Source: Leptogorgia sarmentosa
Lineage: Eukaryota
Direction: 5' to 3'
Length of the DNA: 64,000 nt
NCBI GenBank assembly: GCA_964658305.1
Contig: OZ210885.1
Coordinates: forward strand, 7,564,001-7,628,000
Each line of letters begins with the position of its first letter. The first letter of the stretch is position 1. The position numbers and the translations under genes are program-made. This document shows, in pieces, positions 16,601 to 61,037 of this stretch. Under the pieces are notes generated by a model, which was not told where the DNA came from, did no database searches, and was given only the letters and a program-made list of their open reading frames with translations.

Positions 16601-19600
16601 AAGACCGTGTGATGTAAGCACTTCAAAAGTCTGTAGGAGAGGAATGAGGAAATGTCAGTAAGTTAGATTGTTAAATGCATGCAAAATTAAAACACGTTCC
16701 TAAATGATATTTGTTAATCAAAATACTTTTCCATTTTCTATAGCCCCCACGTGCGATCCCTCTTCACAATTCACTTGTGGTGACGGTGAATGTTTCCCTA
16801 TTTCTTTTCATTGCGACGGCGATAATGACTGCCCTGACTCCTCGGACGAACAGGGTTGCCCCCCACCACCCACTTTCGCTCCTTGTCCAGCTCACAAATT
16901 TGGATGCAGTGACGGAGAATGTTTACCGCTGGACTGGAAGTGCGATGGTGCATCAGACTGCAACGATGGAACAGATGAATTGAGCTGTCCTGCAACGTGC
17001 ATGAGCATGCAGTTTACATGCGCGCAATCGGGAAAGTGCATTTTCCAGCATTCAAGGTGCGACGGTATTGAAGATTGTGGAGACGGTTCGGATGAAGCGA
17101 AATGTGGTGAGTGGCAGTTGAATTAAATCAAGTATCGTCGATTGCAATTAAGAATGAACAGTTGCATATAAAAAGATTGATAAATCTGTTAATTTATTGG
17201 TATAGCACAGATTATTATTCACTGCATGTTTTCCAGTTAAAGTTTCGTTTTACTAATCATGATTCTGGGGAGTTGGTTGTATCAAGGGTGAATAGAGCAC
17301 TATCCAATAGCTTGTTTTTATCGCTTTCAGACTGAATGCAATGTTTGTGTCCTTCATATGTACAGAATTTATAAAGAGACTGTGGTACACTGAATTTAGG
17401 ACATGCAATTGGGCGAAATTTAATGAAGCTAATTTTTTTCCGTTTAAGTTTCTTTAGAACATCCCATGTCATGCAGTGATGCTAGTTCGTTTCGTTGTGG
17501 AAGTTCGCCATATTGTATCAACGCGACCAAAGTGTGCAATGGTTTGAGAGATTGTCCCCGTGGGGAAGATGAAGCACCTAACTGTGGTATGTATTATGCT
17601 TCTCTTACCGGAAGAGAATCACATACAGGCCCAAAAAGGCAAAAACTATGTGCGTATTATGTATTATGTACTATGTAGTTAACAGATCTACTGATTTTCT
17701 TTGCCGCTTTTCTGTTGAAACTAATATTCATTTGATGCATTTTTTTATAATGCGGATGTAAATTTTCTCATATGTGACTGTGTATCTACATTGCATTTTA
17801 ATAGGAATCGACGAGTGTTCTGATCATAATGGTCACTGTATTCACAAATGTAAAGATCTTCCTATTGGTTACGAATGCCATTGTAATAAAGGCTACAAAC
17901 TGGCCAACGACAGCAGATCATGTGAAGGTACGAACGTTGAGGCATGGCTCTGCATTGTCACTATAATATGTTGTGCGCTACTTTTACGATGATTTATATT
18001 GCAGACCTAAACGAATGCGAAGAGGTGTATGGCTCCTGCAGTCAGACGTGTGTTAACTTCAAAGGACACTTCAAATGTGGTTGTGTCCAGGGTTATCGTA
18101 AGGAAGAGGATGTCACGTGTCGAGCGACAGGTGAGAGATCACTGGGTACGCCGGGTATGCCTTTTCCTGGCGTAACATGTTTGCAATGAAACTGATAAAG
18201 GTTGACGGGGACGATTCATTGATTCGTGAAGACTATTGAAGATATGTTGCTAAAGATTGTATATTATTTGCGAAATTTTCTAGGCCCACAAGCGTATCTT
18301 GTCTTTGGTGGCGAACATGCCATTCACAATCTCACAGTATCCGGGATTCACTACGGTGATGTTGTTTTAAATCGCAACGCACCAATTGCCATAGGCCATG
18401 ATGTCAATAATGGATACGTTTACTGGAGTGATATTCTTGATGGAACGATTGAACGTGCACGATTATTGGGTGATGGAACTGCGGAGACAGTTGTTAAGAA
18501 AGTAGTACACTCAAATGGTACGTTTAACCGATCTAAGTCAATGTTGTTGGCTACCTGCATGTTTCTATATTATAAATTTGTACGCCTTCTTTCAATCTAA
18601 TGTTGGTTAATATAAATTAAAAAATCTAGGTGTGGCCATTGATTGGATTGGAAAGAAAATATATTGGACCGATGAAACATTGAAATCCATTGAAGTTTCT
18701 GAATTCGATGGCAAGAATCGTTTAAAACTATTCAGTGCCAGCTTAGACGCGCCGCGCGGTATAGCTTTGGATCCATTTGAAAGGTAGGATTACTACTTAT
18801 CTGTATATTTTGAGCTGGGATGGTGCGCAAGCCATAATTAACTTCTTGTCAAATGTAGGCTATGTAGCTTTCAATTAACCAATCTTCCGAACTTTCAGCC
18901 AATGTTCTTGAGTTAAAAATAATAAACCAGCGAAATTAAATGAATACTTTAGACAAGGCTAGATAGAAACCAATGAGGATTTCTTTACTTCTAGGTATAT
19001 ATTCTGGACAGATTGGGGTGGAGTACATCCTAAAATTGAGCGAGCAAGTATGGATGGCAATTTAACTTCTCGCAAAGTTATCCTTGACACTGACCTCGTC
19101 TGGCCAACTGCCTTGACAATAGATACCATCACTCAGAGGTTGTTCTTCGCGGACACAAAATCGCAGCGAATAGACACGATCAAATACGACGGTTCGGCGA
19201 GAAAGACTTTGATCTTCAAAGGACTTGTTCACCCGCTAGGTTTGGCAGTGTTTGAGGATCGTCTGTACTATACTGATTATTCGCTTGACACCATATTCAC
19301 CGTCAACAAAAGAACTGGCCAACGATTAGGTGAACTGAAAAACAATTTGAGAAGTCCTACGGGTGTGAATGTTGTTCACCCATTGCATCAGAAACAAGGT
19401 AAGGCAGTGAATGATTTAATTTCTTTCTCCGCTTCACTGTGTACGTGAAACTGAACAGAAAACGCAACCGAAAAATTATATACACAAAATTTATTTCTTT
19501 AGTCCCCACACAGTGCGCCAGAAATAACGGTGGCTGCTCTCATCTCTGCCTGCTTTCAAACGTTTCCGCAAAAAATCACACCTGCCGCTGTCCAAACGGA

Positions 19601-20374
19601 ATGGTGTTGAGAAAAGATGGCAAATCCTGCGTTCATAGCGACGAATCAAATTCAACGACACCTAGCAAAACCAGCCCCTCTCCAACGATCAGGATTGTAT
19701 CTACTGGCAAACCTAGCCAGACCAGTCCATTCGGGACGACCAGAAAGAGTACAACAAGTAACAAAGGTAAGGAATGTCTTTGCGATGGCAACAAAAAGTC
19801 TTATTTAAAAGAACGTATAAAATAATACTGTCCTGTATTAAAGTGACAATCTGCATGTATTGTCACAGCTCACAAGTGGGCTCCCGCAAGGTTTTTAGCT
19901 TTTTACCGTTTTTAAACAACTTTTGATTGTTACTCAGTGACTATTAGGTCAGTGATTATTAGGCTAATCCCGCAACAGTTTGTTTCAAGAATTAAGCAAG
20001 ATATGAAAAATCTGTGAAATAGCTATGCCTTTATAAATAATTTAGAAACGTTCTTTAAGACTTCAAGACTGGTTCTGAAAAGAATTTTGATCTTTGAACG
20101 TTTGTATAATCTAGATGGTACGCTGGGCAAGAAACAGGGTGAATCATCTTCAAACAGCGGACCAATGATAGCTGGAGTTACTGTGGCTGTTTTGGTACTC
20201 ATCTTCCTGCTCATTGTCGCTTTCTTGTATTGGCGAAGACAAAGCAAGATGGCGGATAGAAGAATTCTGTTTTACAAAGTTAACTCCACAACGCCGCTGC
20301 AAAACGACTTCAATGAAGAGCTTATCAAAAGCCACGAAAACATTGGCGGAATGTCACGCGTGCAATTTACATAA
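13668..20374 (+). CDS. VLDLR/LDLR-family lipoprotein receptor (signal peptide, 8 LDL-A, 2 EGF, YWTD propeller, EGF, S/T-rich, TM, short tail)
   Basis: 14 exons, all GT-AG and phase-compatible: 13668-13746, 14676-14798, 14906-15031, 15285-15407, 15716-15832, 16744-17106, 17458-17586, 17805-17927, 18005-18130, 18284-18517, 18630-18783, 18995-19398, 19503-19766, 20115-20374. Motifs DCxDx[43 protein letters not shown]. Confidence 0.95.
15926..16441 (+). mobile_element. Crypton-like family A copy 2, in intron 5 of the receptor gene
   Basis: Hairpin plus right end ATTTATACTAA; minus-strand ORF 16146-16328 [37 protein letters not shown] followed by a GT donor matches the CryptonA/DUF3504-type N-terminus. 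Confidence 0.75.
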
Positions 20375-40300: not shown

Positions 40301-40359
40301 GTTATCGTCAATCATTCAATATCAATGTTATAAACACCAAAGCTTCTGAAGCATACAGT

Positions 40360-40742
40360 CGTCAGTATGGTTGGCGTCTTTCTAACTATGCAAAATAATC
40401 ATGTTGTAGTTAAAAGTTTCTCTGGTGCTACTGTTAATGACACGGAAGATTATTTAAAGCCGGTTCTTCGTAAAGAGCCAAATAAAATCATTTTGCATGC
40501 AGCAACAAAACAGAGTAGCTGAAGGTATTGCAAACCTAGGCACCCAAATTAAAGAAGAATCCCCAACAACCAGCATTGTGATCTCAAGTATATTACCAAG
40601 ATCAGATAATGCAGATTTATCAACAAAAGCATTAGAAGTAAATAGACTTACTAAATCAATTTGCTCCAAAAACAAATTATTTATATTGAACATAAAACGG
40701 TGAACAAATCATGCCTTAATTCACGTGTCTTGCATTTAAATA
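40360..40742 (+). pseudogene. Degenerate LINE ORF1 SGNH-esterase fragment
   Basis: HVVVKSFSGATVNDTEDYLKPVLRKEPNKIILH...IVISSILPRSD...LNSRVLHLN with frameshifts. Confidence 0.8.
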
Positions 40743-42108: not shown

Positions 42109-43104
<996 letters not shown>

Positions 43105-43277
43105 TAAATATATTTAATCACGGTAGCCTTTCAGTTTCCTGGTTTTCAAAGGGCCGTGAGTAACAAATAAAATCTAAATACTAAGAAAAATACATATTTA
43201 CAACAAATACTGTTCTAGACAATTAATATTACGCTATTTACAAAAAAGGATCAAATCTGCGCGCTCCCCTGGCAAAG

Positions 43278-46268
43278 TCACTGGGCTTTTAAAAGTCGTT
43301 TAAATGCAAGTAATGAATGATTTTCAAAATCATGGACAATTTCATTTGGTAATTTGTTCCATGCCATTGCGCCACGATATAGAAAGCTTTTCTTTAGGAA
43401 ATTTGTTTTAGGTTTTGGTAGATAAAGCTTTCGATCGTTGCTTCTCAGTGTGTAAGTATCGTTATGACAAGTGTGAAATAAGTCTGATATGTATGTTGGT
43501 GTCATTTTTCGTAGAGCCTTAAATACCATTACTTCTTCACGTTGGTCAAGGGTACTTTTAATTGGTTGCCATTGTAGCCTATTTAATATGTCTGAGCTTC
43601 TAACGTCGTAATTCGAACTGGTAATAATTCGTGCAGCTCTTTTCTGTAATTTTTGTAATTTGTCAATATGTGTAATATTTCCTTGATGCCACACTGTTGA
43701 ACAATAAGTAAAGTATGGTAGAACTAATGAGTTATATAATGTAATTAGTCCGTTTTCTGTCGTGTATTTTTTGGCCCTTCTTAATAGGGCAATGTTTTTT
43801 GATATTTTCTTGCATTGAGTGTCGATATGTTTATGCCAGCTGAGATTCTCGTCTACAAATACTCCAAGAAATTCCTTTTGTGATACTCTCTTTATCTTTT
43901 GGTCCCCAATACGAATTTCTGGGTCCGAAAGTATATTTTTAAGCCTGTACTGGGAACCGATGATCATGTACTCCGTTTTTTTAGTATTTAATGTTAATTT
44001 GTTCCATATTAGCCATTTATGGACATTGTCAAGGTCTGTGTTAATTTTCTGCTCAATATCCGCTGACGATTTTCCATTACAGTTTAGATTAGTGTCATCA
44101 GCAAACATCGATGCGTCCGTGGTAGTCAAACAGTTGGGCAAGTCGTTAATATAAATCAGGAAAAGTAATGGCCCCAAATTTGACCCTTGCGGAACTCCGC
44201 AAGTGGTTTTGGCCACTGTTGAAAATTCCTGATTAATCTTACAGACTTGTCTTCTTTCTGAGAGATAGGATATAAACCATTGCAATGTCAAACCTCGTAT
44301 TCCGTAAAGATTTAATTTGTCAATAAGAATCTTATGATCTACAGTGTCGAAGGCTTTCTTAAGGTCCAAAAATAGCAAGCCATTGATAAAGCCCTTATCC
44401 ATGTTTATAAGACATTGATTTGTACCATGTAAGAGTGTGCTTTCTGTAGAATGCTGAGTACGAAATCCGGATTGGTTTGTTGACAGTAAATGATTGTCGT
44501 CAAAGTACTGGCTTAATTGTTTGTATACAAGTTTTTCGAAGACTTTTGCAATCGCTGAAATTACCGAAATAGGTCTATAGTTGCTACAGTCTTTCCTGTC
44601 CTCTGATTTATAGATTGGAGTCACTTTAGCATATTTTAATTCGTCTGGAAATATCCCGGTGTTAATAGAAAGGTTGAAAATGAAAGTCAGAGAATTAATT
44701 ATGGTCTCTCCTGCAGATTTTAAAAGTTTGTTTGAAATTTTGTCAAGTCCTGATGATTTCTTATCTTTGGTTTTGTCAATTTCGTTTTTAACATCAACAT
44801 AAGTGAAATCCTTAAAGCTAAATGTATTCGGTGCAGGCTCTACATAGCTTAGAGGGTCAATGTTATTGTTGGGCAAGTTCTCGCAAAGCTTCGGACCAAT
44901 AGTCGAAAAGAATTTGTTAAATTCGTCCGCGATATTTTTATCTCCGGTAACTGTTGTATGTTCATTTTCTACCTCGTTGATTATGGTGGATTTAGACTTT
45001 TTATTAAGCAGTTCGTTAATTGCTTTCCATCCCTCTTTACTATTTTTGCTGTTTTCTAACTTGTGCTTAAAGTAATTGGATTTTGTATCTTTAATAAGAC
45101 GGTTTAAATTATTTCGACAGTCCTTGTATAACTTGTGGTATCTAGGAGAGTTGTGTCTTACTGCTTTCTTTTTTAAGTAATCTCTATGATGGCTAAGGGA
45201 CTTAATTTCGCTTGTCATCCATGATTTGTATTCACTCTTAACCTTTCGCTTTTTTAATGGAGCATGGTGATCAGCAATTTCCAGAAAGGTTTCTTTCCAT
45301 ATATGCCAGGCAGCATTAGCATCCGTACAATTATATAGTTGCGTGGAGTTAAATGCGTCGCTAAGGTCTTGTTGGAAATAATCATTGTCGAAAAATTTGA
45401 ATTGCCTTGTTTCAACTATTTTTGGCTTACTTTTAGGAACGCTAACTTTTCGACATAGGTATACGAGACTGTGATCACTGATTCCCACATGTAATACTCC
45501 TGAGTCGATTATTTTAGTGTCGCCCATTTTAGTAATTATGATGTCTAGTAGTGTTTTAGATGTAGGGGTGATTCTGGTTGGATCTTTAATATTTTGCTGA
45601 AGTTGGTATTCAGTCAGTAAGTTGTCTAGTTTAGCGGTATGCTCATTATATTCGGTTGCTAAGAAGTTACAATTGAAGTCACCCGTTATGACAATGTCTT
45701 TGTTCTCGTCATCCGCTTTCCTTAAGAAGTCGTTGAAAAAGTCCAGTAATTCTATGTTCGCGCTTGGGGGACGGTACCATGTGGACATTAGCAGTGCTTT
45801 ACTCTTTGGTTTTCTGATTTCAAGGCATAATGCTTCAACATTAGTTACTAACAAATCATTGCGCTTTGTGTATGGAATAGTACTTCTTACGTAAATAGCT
45901 ACACCTCCCCCATTTCGGTTCCTATCTCTTCTAGTAAGGTCATATCCTTTTATCTCGACTTCGTTATTGTCTATAGTGTCATCAAGTCTTGTTTCATTGA
46001 TACTTAGTATATCAAATTGTTGATCATGCATGAGGATTCGCAACTCATCGATATGTTTTATTAGACTTGCAATATTCAAATTACCAATTTTAAAGCCCTT
46101 TAATCTTTGACAAGGGAATGCGCTAGTATTTAGGTCAGAAGACTGAGTATTTGCTTGTGAGTTATTTTGTGTTAATGATGTAGTATTTACAGACTGAGTA
46201 CTTGCTTGTGAGTTATTTTGTGTTAATGATGGGCAAATCGTAGTATAGGTATTCGCGCTAAAAGGCAC
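43278..46268 (-). CDS. LINE ORF2: AP-like endonuclease plus reverse transcriptase, uninterrupted (996 aa)
   Basis: LSINETRLD, GGGVAIY, GDFN, SDH; NYRPIS, FLDLKKAFDTVDH, GVPQGSNLGPLLFLIYINDL, FADDT. Confidence 0.97.
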   Translation of the reverse strand: MPFSANTYTTICPSLTQNNSQASTQSVNTTSLTQNNSQANTQSSDLNTSAFPCQRLKGFKIGNLNIASLIKHIDELRILMHDQQFDILSINETRLDDTIDNNEVEIKGYDLTRRDRNRNGGGVAIYVRSTIPYTKRNDLLVTNVEALCLEIRKPKSKALLMSTWYRPPSANIELLDFFNDFLRKADDENKDIVITGDFNCNFLATEYNEHTAKLDNLLTEYQLQQNIKDPTRITPTSKTLLDIIITKMGDTKIIDSGVLHVGISDHSLVYLCRKVSVPKSKPKIVETRQFKFFDNDYFQQDLSDAFNSTQLYNCTDANAAWHIWKETFLEIADHHAPLKKRKVKSEYKSWMTSEIKSLSHHRDYLKKKAVRHNSPRYHKLYKDCRNNLNRLIKDTKSNYFKHKLENSKNSKEGWKAINELLNKKSKSTIINEVENEHTTVTGDKNIADEFNKFFSTIGPKLCENLPNNNIDPLSYVEPAPNTFSFKDFTYVDVKNEIDKTKDKKSSGLDKISNKLLKSAGETIINSLTFIFNLSINTGIFPDELKYAKVTPIYKSEDRKDCSNYRPISVISAIAKVFEKLVYKQLSQYFDDNHLLSTNQSGFRTQHSTESTLLHGTNQCLINMDKGFINGLLFLDLKKAFDTVDHKILIDKLNLYGIRGLTLQWFISYLSERRQVCKINQEFSTVAKTTCGVPQGSNLGPLLFLIYINDLPNCLTTTDASMFADDTNLNCNGKSSADIEQKINTDLDNVHKWLIWNKLTLNTKKTEYMIIGSQYRLKNILSDPEIRIGDQKIKRVSQKEFLGVFVDENLSWHKHIDTQCKKISKNIALLRRAKKYTTENGLITLYNSLVLPYFTYCSTVWHQGNITHIDKLQKLQKRAARIITSSNYDVRSSDILNRLQWQPIKSTLDQREEVMVFKALRKMTPTYISDLFHTCHNDTYTLRSNDRKLYLPKPKTNFLKKSFLYRGAMAWNKLPNEIVHDFENHSLLAFKRLLKAQ

Positions 46269-46280
46269 ATAAGAATCTAG

Positions 46281-49200
46281 TCAACAATAATCCCCTTTGA
46301 GGTATTGTTTGATATTCTTTGCCAGTACAGAAGTTCCCTCTTTATTTAAATGGAGTCTAGAGTTATTTAGAAGATTTCGCGTAATGTTGTCGTTCTTAAT
46401 CAGTCCCCAATTGTTGGCTTCACATAGTTAGTTTAATTCTTTATTAACCTTATCTGCCAATTTTTGATCGTCTGACCTTGTGATGATTTCAGACCATATT
46501 AAATCAATATTGTTATCTTGATCTTTAATAGATTTTCCAAGAGTTTCCATTGACCTTATCAGATTAGATGTTGATGTCTTGTGTAGATCGTTTGTCCCAA
46601 TATGGACAATAAGCTTGTCTGGATTTGTAGCCAAGGTTGGTACCATGTACACTGTAAAACTGGAGGAGTAAATATTACTCTTTCGGAGAGTAACTATTAC
46701 CCATGTAAGAGGAGTAATCTATTTTGGGGTAGAAATTACTCCCGAATTGAGGGTAATTTGCACTTTAGGGGTAGAATATAGAAGAGTAATTTGACATGGG
46801 GTAAATTTTACCCCTGTTACGAGGGTAGTTGATTGCGGTGTAACTCGGGTGTAAATTAAAAAGGGGTAAAAATTACCCCACGCTTACCCCCCAATTTTTC
46901 AAGATGGCGGCGACAATAAGGAGCGCCGAGATTTCTAAGCTATTTCTGCGCTGGCAATACTGAAATTCCGCAAGCTATTATCCAACATTTATCATTTACT
47001 AATGATGTTGAATAAACGGTCCACTCTTGGCAAATAACAAGGTAAGCCGAACGACATTATTCATCATTTTTGAAGTGTTTAATTACCGTCTTTATCGACG
47101 AAAGCGCGGTACGTTTCTTTCCCCCCGGGTATTCAATGTGTAGCTTTTGCCATTGTTATGAAATGTGAATGAAGCTATGTTATTGCGCCTCACATATAAA
47201 TGTTAAAAAGTGAAGCTGAAAGGACAAATAGTTTAATAATTCTCATACTGTGATTATTAGTTTGAATAGACGTAGTATTTGTACACAGAGCAGCACATTT
47301 GCTCGGAAAGGTTTGCTGTGAAGTTTTGTTGCAAAATATTTCACAATATGCATAGAATATACAGTCATGGAAATTTTGCGGATTTTGTATACTTTTGTAT
47401 TACGTGCGCGCAAAGGCCTTACAATATTTCAAACTGTAATTCTAAATTTGTAGTCTTGCATGTTGCGCATTTGTCCACATATCAAATTTAATCTGACAGC
47501 AATAGAAACAAATGTTTGTAAATTTATCAAGTCGTGACACAATGATTAACTCTTCTGTGTCCACGTGTTTCAAATCTACCAATCAGTGAATGCGCATTTT
47601 TGGCGCTGAATTACGATAGTAAAATAACGAAACAATCAGGCTTCTCCTCTTTCGCGCTTCATCTTCGTTCGTGATCAAAGCAGTGTTGGGTTTGTATAAC
47701 AACGCGTTTCACTGGTAAGCGCTTCTTATTTGTTTGATACACTTCATGTTTATAATATACAAGCGTCGCTGTCGCGAAATCTGACTCTGAGTAGATCAAT
47801 ATATATTCAATTCAACAATATATGTGCGTTGATTAACATTGTATAATTCCTGCGTGATTAGTAAGTTGTATTTTTATGAACGAACTTATCGCCGCCAATG
47901 CGCACTGAATCCGATGGTTTATGTATGTCGGCGCGCTAACATAAACATAAGCAATAAATTCGGTGGCAACACCTAGCCAAATCTCTTCACTCTTCGTCAA
48001 GTATCAATTATATTTATATATATGCTTGGCTTATTACATTCCGGCTGACTCTTACATTGTATAGTATATATAGTTGCTATGAAATCTTAAAAGCTTTTAA
48101 AGTTTATTATACTCTATATATTCCTGAATTCCACGTTCAAATATTGCGTGTTGTTGCCACAAACTGATCAAGGTTAAGGTTCATTTGCGTTGTTGGAATG
48201 CAAAAAATGCGGGTTTGATCAATAACAGCATTCGGTGCTATTAAATTGTGTGTGTAATTTTGTATGTTGAAACTCTTCAAAATCAACAGTTTTGTTAAAT
48301 GCTTTTGCTCATGTAAAAGTCATGTAAAATTTGTTAGAACTTGTATACCTTTTTTTTAAATCTTATGCGGTGATTGTGTGGCGTGATTCATGTTTCAGTA
48401 TGCATGCCTAGTCGGTAAGGAAATTATCAGTTCCTATGTAAACTACAGATCCCTCAATTTATTATGAACCTCGATATGGAACTATTAAGATGATGTGTTC
48501 ATTAAGAACAGACCCAACTTACTGTTTTTTGTGACATAATGGCCACGCTCTTATTCTGTAAATAATACATGCAAACATGATAATTATAGCTCATTTGTAT
48601 ATTTTCCAAAGCATCAGGCATTAGGCTTTGTGTATAATATAATGTAGATCTGGAGAGACTAAATATCATTACATCGCATATGTTCAAGTCGCATGAAGAT
48701 CTCCTATATATTCCTAGCCATTTTGTGTAGTGTATCTCATAAAAATTTGAAATTCTTTTGGTCGCAGATTGTTTGAATATGAATTGAAATAACTCTTCAC
48801 GTGCTGAAGTTTTGAGTTGGCACGACTTGAAACAGAACGTTGAGGCGGCACGCCTTGCGAAGTGGAGAAGTTTCAATTTAATGAGAACAATTCTAATTTA
48901 ACTAGCATGCACTGAATGCATACCTACTAGGAATGAATTTTGCGCCGTGCTGAAGTTTCGGGTTGTCTCGACCTGAAACAGAACGTTGAGGCGTCACGCC
49001 TTGCGAAGGTTGCAATTTTAATTCCTCATAGGTTCTGCTTGCATGCCAAAAAGAAAAAAATATGATGTATGAATTCCTCGCTGGAATAAAATTGGGCTTC
49101 AAAATATGAAATCGATGAATTTTCTACACGTAATGGGTGGGAAATCAACACAAATAATTTAGCTAGTTTGAGAGTTGTATGAGCAATCTGCACATAAACT

Positions 49201-50279
49201 TCTACCTAATTACGAAGCGAGTTTTGAAATTATGAGATGCATGTATGAATATAGCTGAATGTTGAATGTTAAGTTCCACACTTAATTGGTCCAAGTTGTT
49301 CAACTTAAGAGCTGTTGTCATGCATTCAACATTTTAGGATAATCCAGAGTGACCAGACACACTGAGCAGGTTGTTTCTTGGAGCAAGAGGAGAAATTGCG
49401 CGAGAAAAGGTCATCAAGAGCGGTTTTGGCGTTACAATTCCAAAATCTCCTGTCCTCAAGAATGGAAAGACAATGCAAAATATCACTGCAAAATTTCTGC
49501 AGGATTCTACAGCTGGAAATATTGCGCGCTCGAATGAACTTTTATGTTTGTTGTTAATTTCAAATAGATTTTAAAATACTCTAATAAATTGAACCGCCAT
49601 ATAGATGTATGTATTGTGTATTACAATAATAAAATTGGTGTGCTACAAGTGAAGTTCGATGTATCATTACTCATGCAGGTTCCTGCCGAAATTACTTCAA
49701 TTCAAATTGTAGTAAAATATATTGCCCCGTTTTGTGTACCAGGAGTAAAAATTACCCATCTTTGGTAGAAGTGTAAAATTTACCCCATTTGGTAATAGAG
49801 TAAAAATTACCCCATTTTTATCCGGGTGAAAATTACCCCATTTCATTTGGGGGTAAAAATTACCCTTTTTATAGAGGGGTAAAAATTACTCTTTGCGCAA
49901 AATTACTCTCAAAACCCGGGGCATTCATTGGACATGAAATTTACCCCACTTTTTAGAGTAATTTTTACTCCCCCAGTTTTACAGTGTAGTGCTTCATTTC
50001 TTCTGTCCCCACTCCAGGAAAGGTTTTAATAGTGACTTTATGATCTCGTAGGCCGGCTTGCATTCTTTTTGTGTTTAAGTGCTTGAGCATTGAGTCTCCC
50101 AGAATGGCTATTTTTGTTTGAGTTTGGTGGGTACTTCGTGTGTCAGGTCTGACACTCGCTGGATGTCGGCTTGATCCTCGCATATTCGTGTTGTCTAGTC
50201 GTTCGGCTTGGCTGTTGTTGACATCGGATGGAATATCTTTGTCTTTATCATTAGGGATTATCATTAGTGCATTGTTCAT
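46281..50279 (-). pseudogene. LINE ORF1 (SGNH esterase), split by insertion 46650-49986 and with a premature TAA at 46428
   Basis: ILGDSMLKH...FPGVGTEEMKHY|MVPTLATNPDKLIVHIGTNDL...RLHLNKEG; native stop TGA 46281-46283. Confidence 0.9.
46650..49986. mobile_element. Non-autonomous CACTA/EnSpm (CMC)-type DNA transposon, 3337 bp
   Basis: TIR CACTGTAAAACTGGAGGAGTAAA / TTTACTCCCCCAGTTTTACAGTG; 2-bp TSD TA; many subterminal aaattacccc repeats; removal restores the ORF1 frame. Confidence 0.9.
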
Positions 50280-55710: not shown

Positions 55711-56605
55711 ATCCCCAGTGGTTATGTCACTTAAAAACTTCGCCACTCGCACGTCTTCTTCCCCCGTCCCTGCCACATTGTAGTATTTGTCTGACGTCGT
55801 CACCGAATGGGACATCTGTTTCGCCAGCTGCTCATCGCTGACAGCTGACGAAGGCCCCATTTTCCTCTGTTTGCTTATGAGAGATTTCCGGAGGCCAGCT
55901 CCGTGGACGTCCACGCCCATCCTTTGTCCATCACCTGTATTCGCTGGGAGACCCCGGATTATGTCAAACGCTGTTCCGAAGCGTTTACGAAAAAGATATG
56001 TTCGGACGGTATACCCGGCTTGCCTTCCGTCACCGAGTCGCTATTCGGGTGGGGCCTCAATTGTGTCAGGTACTTCTGGCCCATGTTCTTAATCTCTTCG
56101 TTCCAGAATAACTTGGCTGGTCCTACCGAGGAGCCCGTCTTGTGTTGTGTCGTTTGCGTGACGTACAGCTCACGTGTCTGTGTGCCGGCCTCGAACTCCG
56201 CCACCGTGAGGTTGGCGAGTTCCCCTGCTCGCTGACCGCTTGCGACCAAGAGCCGGAGCATTAGGTAATCTCTCATCTGGGAAAAATCGATTAAAGCAAC
56301 GGGCTCGTCTTCCTCGAGTTCTTGATAACGTCGGCGAATGGACAGGCTCATTGGACTCGACAACATTCGGGCGAAGTCGTCAGGACCAAGAAGACCCTCT
56401 TGGTCCCTTGTCTGACCTCCGCCCGACGGCGAGTCAGCACTGGTGCTAATGAGCCAGTCCAATGTTTGATGCGTGTGAGGGCGGCTTGCACGAGTTCGAG
56501 TTCATGGCTTGACACGCTGCTGTCGATTCTTGTTATCCCCTCCACCCTACTCAACATGAAGTTCAGAAAAAGTTTAAATGATACCACATACGTTTTGAGG
56601 GTCAA
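55690..56605 (-). pseudogene. Tyrosine recombinase of an animal YR element (Crypton-like), frameshifted
   Basis: Catalytic motifs in order: SGQRAGELANLT (R), HKT (K), GLRKS (R), QMSHS (H), DKYY (Y), spread over three frames. Confidence 0.85.
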
Positions 56606-60492: not shown

Positions 60493-60947
60493 TTAAATGG
60501 AGTGCCAGAGGCATCCACAGTGTGTAATTTCTCCGCACTCTATGGAGAAATTGAAAGTTAATCGTTTGAATGTTTCTTTTACAGTGTCTACACATTTTTT
60601 GTGCACATGTGTCCCGCAGCAGTCGGTTTCTTGCTGCTCTTCGTCTTCGTTTTTCGTTTTCAAACACAACCAGCATAGTTCTTTATCTGGAAACGCCGTT
60701 CGACAGTGGCCGCATCTCACGGTTCCGGGCGTTGTGCTTCTTGCTGCCCACTGTCGAAAACACTCAGGATGGGCTCTTTGACGGCAGCAGTCCATGGTCA
60801 TGGCCAACATTTCGTTTAATTCGATGTCTTCATAACAGAAGTAGCACCGCCCTTTCTCGTCTTTATTTTCTGTTAGGATCCAAAGAGAGGAATGATGGTT
60901 GTGTACATCTCGTCTTCTGGTTCTGGTAGAACGCCAATCTTTTCCAT
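60493..60947 (-). pseudogene. RING-finger protein gene, frameshift near 5' end
   Basis: CYFCYEDIELNEMLAMTMDCCRQRAHPECFRQW...RCGHCR plus a second Cys cluster; ATG 60947 preceded by TATAAAT and TCAGT. Confidence 0.7.
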
Positions 60948-61037
60948 TCCGATGTGTGACTGATGTTGATGAGGAAGCGCATTTATACTAAGTTAATATG
61001 CAGGAGCGAGTGATTGGTATCGGTGACGTGCGCCAGT

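Follow-up and report, generated by a model that had tools for sequence, protein, structure and literature searches.

Translation of the second open reading frame (ORF) on bicistronic LINE RNAs has long been in question, and an answer exists only for L1 and SART1, where in both cases reinitiation yields separate proteins. The question is raised anew by a LINE of Leptogorgia sarmentosa (assembly GCA_964658305.1, contig OZ210885.1, positions 7,564,001–7,628,000), located in a stretch of 64,000 nucleotides that was analysed as a whole and is called the window here; positions are those of the window. On the minus strand, the ORF1 frame was found to end in TGA at 46283–46281, followed by CTAG, and the same frame stays open for 1,000 codons to 43281. 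This confirmed the original observation that ORF1 and ORF2 lie in frame over one TGA-CTAG stop.

The LINE and its ORF1/ORF2 junction

The following features were assigned:

42919–43104, minus strand: (TAA)62 tail of the LINE (repeat analysis)
43105–43277, minus strand: 3′ UTR of the LINE (sequence)
43278–46280, minus strand: ORF2 frame with linker, APE endonuclease and reverse transcriptase (RT), 1,000 open codons (ORF list, Pfam)
46029–46031, minus strand: first in-frame ATG of the ORF2 frame, codon 84, 3′ of endonuclease motif I
46098–46280, minus strand: linker of 61 codons, ATG-free, N/Q/S/T-rich, open in the ORF2 frame (the two remaining frames hold 6 and 5 stops)
46140–46231, minus strand: direct repeat, 41-nt unit, period 51 nt (sequence)
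46277–46283, minus strand: ORF1 stop with context UGA CUAG, predicted readthrough site (sequence, contigs X3 and X9, census of relatives)
46284–46649, minus strand: 3′ half of the ORF1 SGNH esterase, residues 389–513 of protein P0121 (tblastn, 93% identity)
46428–46430, minus strand: premature TAA, a point change private to the window copy (absent from contigs of 4/4 runs compared and from P0121)
46650–49986, no strand assigned: DNA-transposon-like insertion of 3,337 bp that interrupts ORF1, bounded by terminal inverted repeats and a duplicated TA target (sequence, subterminal tandem repeats)
49987–50258, minus strand: 5′ piece of the truncated ORF1, P0121 residues 299–391, including the esterase GDS motif (tblastn, 83% identity; ORF list)

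ORF2 matched Exo_endo_phos and RVT_1 in Pfam, and the element thus has the APE endonuclease and RT of an APE-type LINE. It ends in a simple-repeat 3′ tail, and no LTRs were found in this 5′-truncated copy. From the esterase and from sequence motifs, we take the element to belong to the CR1 group.

The motif I Asn of the endonuclease is codon 69, and the first in-frame ATG (46031) lies 15 codons further on, within the endonuclease and close to the distance of about 80 codons given previously. Of the other ATGs between 46425 and 46027, three are outside the ORF2 frame and one belongs to the tail of the dead ORF1. An ORF2 protein begun at codon 84 would lack motif I and, judging from general APE anatomy, would probably be inactive. 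The linker was open in 1.7% of shuffles. Its repeat, described before as a 51-bp tandem duplication, does recur at a period of 51 nt, but the repeated unit is 41 nt long (one mismatch) and does not make up two full 51-nt copies. TGACTAG occurs once in the window, both strands counted. However, the ORF2 stop of the same element is also TGA-C, and a single copy alone therefore proves nothing.

The full ORF1 of this family is represented by P0121 (513 aa), whose C-terminal part is an SGNH esterase; P0121 matched PDB 4C1B at E 2e-6, and the Lipase_GDSL_2 match of ORF1 was weak, just under the curated cut-off. Besides the TAA and the insertion, from which ORF1 of the window copy had correctly been declared dead, this ORF1 is 5′-truncated (its alignment to P0121 starts at residue 299) and carries, as a separate event, a 9-bp in-frame deletion about 15 nt upstream of the TAA that was absent from contigs of four runs. 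The LINE in the window is a dead copy, and relatives therefore had to serve for the test.

The insertion is non-autonomous, with CACTG termini, a TA duplication and subterminal repeats of 26–27 nt, and is presumably EnSpm/CACTA-like. Residues 1–100 of P0121 share with P0123 and P0277 an N-terminal ORF1 domain without a Pfam match, which precedes a coiled-coil-like region. Elsewhere in the window, a second, decayed esterase fragment (40343–40703, plus strand; 31% to P0121), a tyrosine-recombinase fragment (55959–56501, minus strand; Phage_integrase, E 1e-5; possibly Crypton/DIRS-like), a RING-finger ORF (60493–60987, minus strand) and exons of an LDL-receptor/LRP-like gene (16700–19830, plus strand; judged by eye from ORF translations) were found, the last of which point to an animal as host.

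Contigs with the junction of the same family were compared with the window. In X3 and X9, which carry two organism codes, all differences were located (3/3 and 6/6), and the stop and CTAG were untouched. In X6, 6/7 differences were located, and in X14–X17 two differences each remained unlocated, most likely within 46260–46290, so that the motif may differ there. The linker of the X15 contig was 51 nt shorter with the frame kept, and its replaced letters contained no ATG. Junction contigs were also present in two runs guessed to be RNA; these give no information on expression. Among the 15 of 20 P0121-cluster members listed, 10 extend as far as the last esterase motif, and all of these share one C-terminal residue position. 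More widely, 141 of 157 esterase proteins contained the last motif; 130 of these end within 36 residues past it and 11 run on, six of them into an endonuclease. The stop at the end of ORF1 is a family feature. It might be supposed that the LINE has a single ORF and that TGA is a nonsense mutation, since the window copy is dead and fused proteins exist. This was refuted by the stop being kept in high-depth contigs, at the common end of the P0121 cluster and at the protein ends in general, which leaves it next to no probability.

Junctions of related elements

Relatives were sought in contigs from metagenomes and genomes by means of peptide patterns of the esterase that exclude the junction, which gave 65 loci. 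Of these, 35 were dropped: 7 fell short of the esterase end, 5 were on contigs ending before the stop, and 23 had no endonuclease match in reach (TGA-C was seen in 7 of the 23). The endonuclease was in the ORF1 frame at 24 of the 30 loci having both esterase and endonuclease. The in-frame stops were TGA at 22 loci, TAG at one and TAA at one (L010, TAA-G); TGA-C was found at 17, with TGA-CAA at 11 and TGA-CTA at 3, and the +4 C was absent at 7/24. The comparison of junctions over families, proposed earlier as a check, was thus in favour of a conserved in-frame TGA. The UGA-CUAG context as originally put forward was upheld in part: UGA with +4 C was kept across families, whereas full TGA-CTAG was confined to the window and L004, i.e., the close group of the window. 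It is UGA-C rather than CUAG that is conserved as the signal.

Linkers of in-frame loci ranged from 60 to 819 nt and were stop-free in 23/24; the L041 linker held one stop and that of L030, which is outside this count, two, both copies being decayed. Endonucleases of families keeping frame, TGA and +4 C were 26–37% identical to that of the window. Single-linkage grouping at 60% esterase identity gave 17 groups including that of the window, a mixed group being scored by its in-frame member. With the window's group excluded, 13/16 groups were in frame (binomial p 1.2e-4 vs. 1/3), with TGA in 11/13 (p 4e-4) and TGA-C in 6/13 (p 1.2e-4 vs. a background of 0.069); these p-values are optimistic and overstate independence, because the groups share ancestry. 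The open frame kept by linkers very unlike in length and sequence is a stronger argument than the p-values. The stretch before the first ATG was open in 13/13 groups, while shuffles predict 2.2. In an RT tree of 16 rows (9 rows with junction data, midpoint root), each of the two deepest branches contained in-frame TGA-C junctions.

Within the L039 group (11 loci), TGA CAA was invariant including the wobble base, and flanking codons varied. The 37 codons before the usual ATG in this group contained no stops in 9 loci, whereas 22 and 25 stops were counted when the two alternative frames were read. Linker dN/dS was 0.60, but one shifted frame gave 0.57, so this measure does not discriminate between frames. 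L047, in frame with TGA-C, matched 4C1B at E 1e-46. The only in-frame TAG, at L029, had the context TAG-CAATTA; in this locus (L029:1435–1443), TAG CAA TTA is followed by an open linker of 273 codons with an internal repeat. Viral contigs gave 83 pattern matches and no relatives, and in GTDB 5 loci were matched by the esterase patterns, none with an endonuclease. Two esterase sequences, L061 and L062, were on contigs of two Sedimenticola MAGs and are possibly host DNA in the bins; the end of L061 was identical to that of metagenome locus L024.

Four of the six out-of-frame loci were frameshifted copies for which either relatives in frame or a TGA junction in frame could be recognized: L059, of the L039 group, has slipped by a dinucleotide in the linker; L019 and L026 have a TGA-T junction in the linker frame beside frameshifts; and L008 is frameshifted, its relative L010 being in frame. 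The first-stop rule picks the wrong junction in L008, L019 and L026, and all three were counted as out of frame. L012 was decayed beyond reading. The remaining locus, L033, was intact, with 352 open codons in ORF1 and 927 in ORF2, the latter in the −1 frame and open from before the stop. Slippery heptamers have the pattern X XXY YYZ, which is fitted by the G GGA AAC immediately 5′ of the ORF1 TAG (L033:1641–1653). L033 showed no clear 3′ structure, has ATGs just before the endonuclease, and is the sister of the TGA-CAA group (support 100/99). −1 frameshifting is therefore a candidate at this single locus, to be regarded as a lead.

P0277, a full ORF1-endonuclease-RT fusion, brought the fused proteins to seven. 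Six of the seven contained Trp at 22–27 residues from the last motif, where ORF1 normally ends, the mean Trp content of ORF2 homologs being 1.4%. P0126 has Trp-Leu at the place where L001–L003 have TGA CTA. The Trp at the stop position may reflect either copies with TGG or TGA read as Trp by the gene caller, and on either reading there would be additional families in which ORF2 follows a TGA- or TAG-type stop in frame. The fused proteins are not to be taken as proof of an active full fusion. Single-ORF proteins were also observed: P0279 and P0280 contain an esterase, a long low-complexity region and an endonuclease, P0280 in addition a PHD and an RT, and the P0280 cluster has three members of 1,931 aa. 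Constitutive fusions thus exist.

Probable readthrough and competing explanations

Programmed readthrough of UGA-C, by which an ORF1-linker-endonuclease-RT fusion would be made, is probably the way in which ORF2 is expressed. Most ribosomes would stop at UGA and release ORF1p, and a minority of a few percent would insert an amino acid and read on into ORF2; at other sites, UGA readthrough inserts Trp, Arg or Cys. A high ORF1p:ORF2p ratio would result, and the flexible linker would tether the enzyme to ORF1p multimers in a Gag-Pol-like manner. The signal would be the local context only, without a conserved 3′ structure. Readthrough would account jointly for the common frame, the open linker, the absent ATGs, the bias to TGA with +4 C, and TAG-CAATTA at L029, whereas AUG-independent reinitiation would explain no more than the frame and the absent ATGs. 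The original prediction of a readthrough fusion is accordingly backed by the comparative data on frame, TGA and +4 C, and is qualified by CUAG not being general and by the early ATGs in 14/24 linkers described below.

As expected of type II (UGA-C) readthrough, where UGA stands before CUA or CGG or at least before +4 C, an in-frame downstream ORF is kept over lineages and UGA is followed by +4 C in the window and at most in-frame loci. A 3′ stimulatory stem-loop, common in this type but dispensable, was not found at the window junction (z +0.7), nor was a consistent 3′ structure found among relatives (z −2 or lower in any segment size at 4/22 junctions). The absence of such structure agrees with the finding that in UGA-CUAG genes no more than 12 nt past the UGA are needed (PMC4132726).

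The position of ATGs bears on where ORF2 could start otherwise. No ATG precedes motif I in the window and at 6/24 loci (L001, L004, L011, L013, L014 and L057); in the intact ORF2s of L014 (1,009 open codons) and L057 (960), the first Met is at 176 and 500, respectively. At four further loci of the 24, an ATG lies just inside the first strand of the endonuclease, with the Asn of motif I following four codons later. The claim that no ATG precedes the endonuclease thus holds for the window and several intact ORF2s, but not for the 14/24 linkers with an ATG well upstream, and AUG starts of ORF2 seem possible in many families. For P0001, the best endonuclease match, a start is predicted 13 residues before motif I, its start codon not being seen. 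Only 1/25 junctions (L020, a deleted copy) had an ATG in frame in the first 30 nt past the stop, so that the stop-start arrangement of SART1 was not found.

A start at a linker AUG, reached by leaky scanning, by reinitiation or on a shortened transcript, with the frame inherited from a single-ORF ancestor, would agree with the ATG before motif I at 18/24 in-frame loci and with the single-ORF esterase-endonuclease-RT proteins P0279 and P0280; a cryptic junction promoter is moreover described for Tca2 in the accessible part of PMC2194720. Still, we consider it very unlikely: the ATG position is variable even within the L039 group, L057 and the window family offer no usable ATG, and the pre-ATG stretch would not need to be open in all 13 groups.

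ORF2s without ATG would also be covered if ribosomes terminated and then reinitiated independently of AUG, either at the ORF1 stop or immediately behind it. The product would be a separate ORF2p starting in the linker, and a fixed restart next to the stop would cover the frame and the open linker as well. L1 provides a precedent (PMC5009743, PMC5972666), and ZfL2-1 was reported, in the accessible part of PMC13343379, to transpose without need of esterase activity. However, such reinitiation predicts neither TGA over TAA/TAG nor +4 C nor TAG-CAATTA, restarts in L1 and SART1 do not need a common frame, and copies with a sense codon at the stop position exist; it is regarded as an unlikely explanation.

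Readthrough, if true, would add a retrovirus-like solution to second-ORF translation, in which a leaky stop in CR1/L2-group elements fixes the ORF1p:ORF2p ratio, and the real ORF2 protein would bear ORF1 at its N-terminus. It is also conceivable, although we lean slightly against it, that esterase-ORF1 LINEs on both deep RT branches make a Gag-Pol-like fusion with recoding devices swapped as in retroviruses (UGA-C, UAG-CAAUUA and −1 frameshifting in L033), the fusion loading RT into membrane-bound ORF1p assemblies.

Comparison with known systems

In Paramecium, UGA is the only stop codon, and stop choice is therefore uninformative there. For the non-LTR Group 3 of Paramecium tetraurelia, readthrough was suggested from sequence alone (Guerin et al., 2017; PMC5405496). 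Like the window element, these are APE-type LINEs with ORF1 and ORF2 in frame over one stop, but they form a separate ciliate clade, and in the accessible part of that paper no esterase is reported and no context analysis was found.

The stop context of the window is that of viral type II and mammalian UGA-CUAG sites, and natural sense-codon variants occur at such sites as well as among the LINEs. Sindbis virus has UGA CUA and ONNV UGA CUA GAC (PMC13517186, in part), the latter with stop-Leu-Asp as in the window. In reporters of mammalian genes, UGA-CUAG gave readthrough with no 3′ structure needed (PMC4132726, in part). Alphaviruses often add a 3′ stem-loop, whereas none was seen in the window, where the extension is a whole LINE enzyme of 1,000 residues. 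TAG CAATTA, as in L029, is the type I motif of TMV (PMC13517186).

Structural and enzyme ORFs in frame over one stop are likewise found in MLV gag-pol and in gag-UGA-pol of Candida Tca2 (PMC5009743, PMC2194720), which, unlike the window element, are LTR elements, MLV using UAG and a pseudoknot (PMC5009743). As far as the accessible text of PMC2194720 goes, the in-frame UGA junction of Tca2 gave no readthrough in a reporter; Tca2 thus cautions that UGA between two ORFs in frame is not always read through in such an assay.

ZfL2-1 (PDB 4C1B) resembles the window element in having an SGNH esterase ORF1 and an APE-RT ORF2 (PMC3905857, PMC4120745, PMC13343379); terms for readthrough or stop codons had no match in the accessible parts of these three papers. 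Its esterase is close to that of in-frame locus L047, and a retrotransposition assay in cell culture is available for it (PMC4245944, in part). Esterase ORF1s were found only in vertebrate subgroups according to the part of PMC4120745 seen, whereas a named homolog of the window's endonuclease comes from Paramuricea clavata. In open papers, no report of readthrough was found for animal LINEs of the CR1/L2 group, although subscription papers, Repbase annotations and supplements may mention in-frame stops. A known recoding device would thus be met here in a LINE group for which no description was found.

Human L1, silkworm SART1 and LINEs with 2A/StopGo have, like the window element, a bicistronic RNA that needs non-canonical expression of ORF2 (PMC5972666, PMC3708506), which in human L1 is initiated independently of AUG (PMC5009743). 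According to the accessible parts of these sources, separate proteins are made in these LINEs via reinitiation or skipping, whereas for the window element a fusion is predicted.
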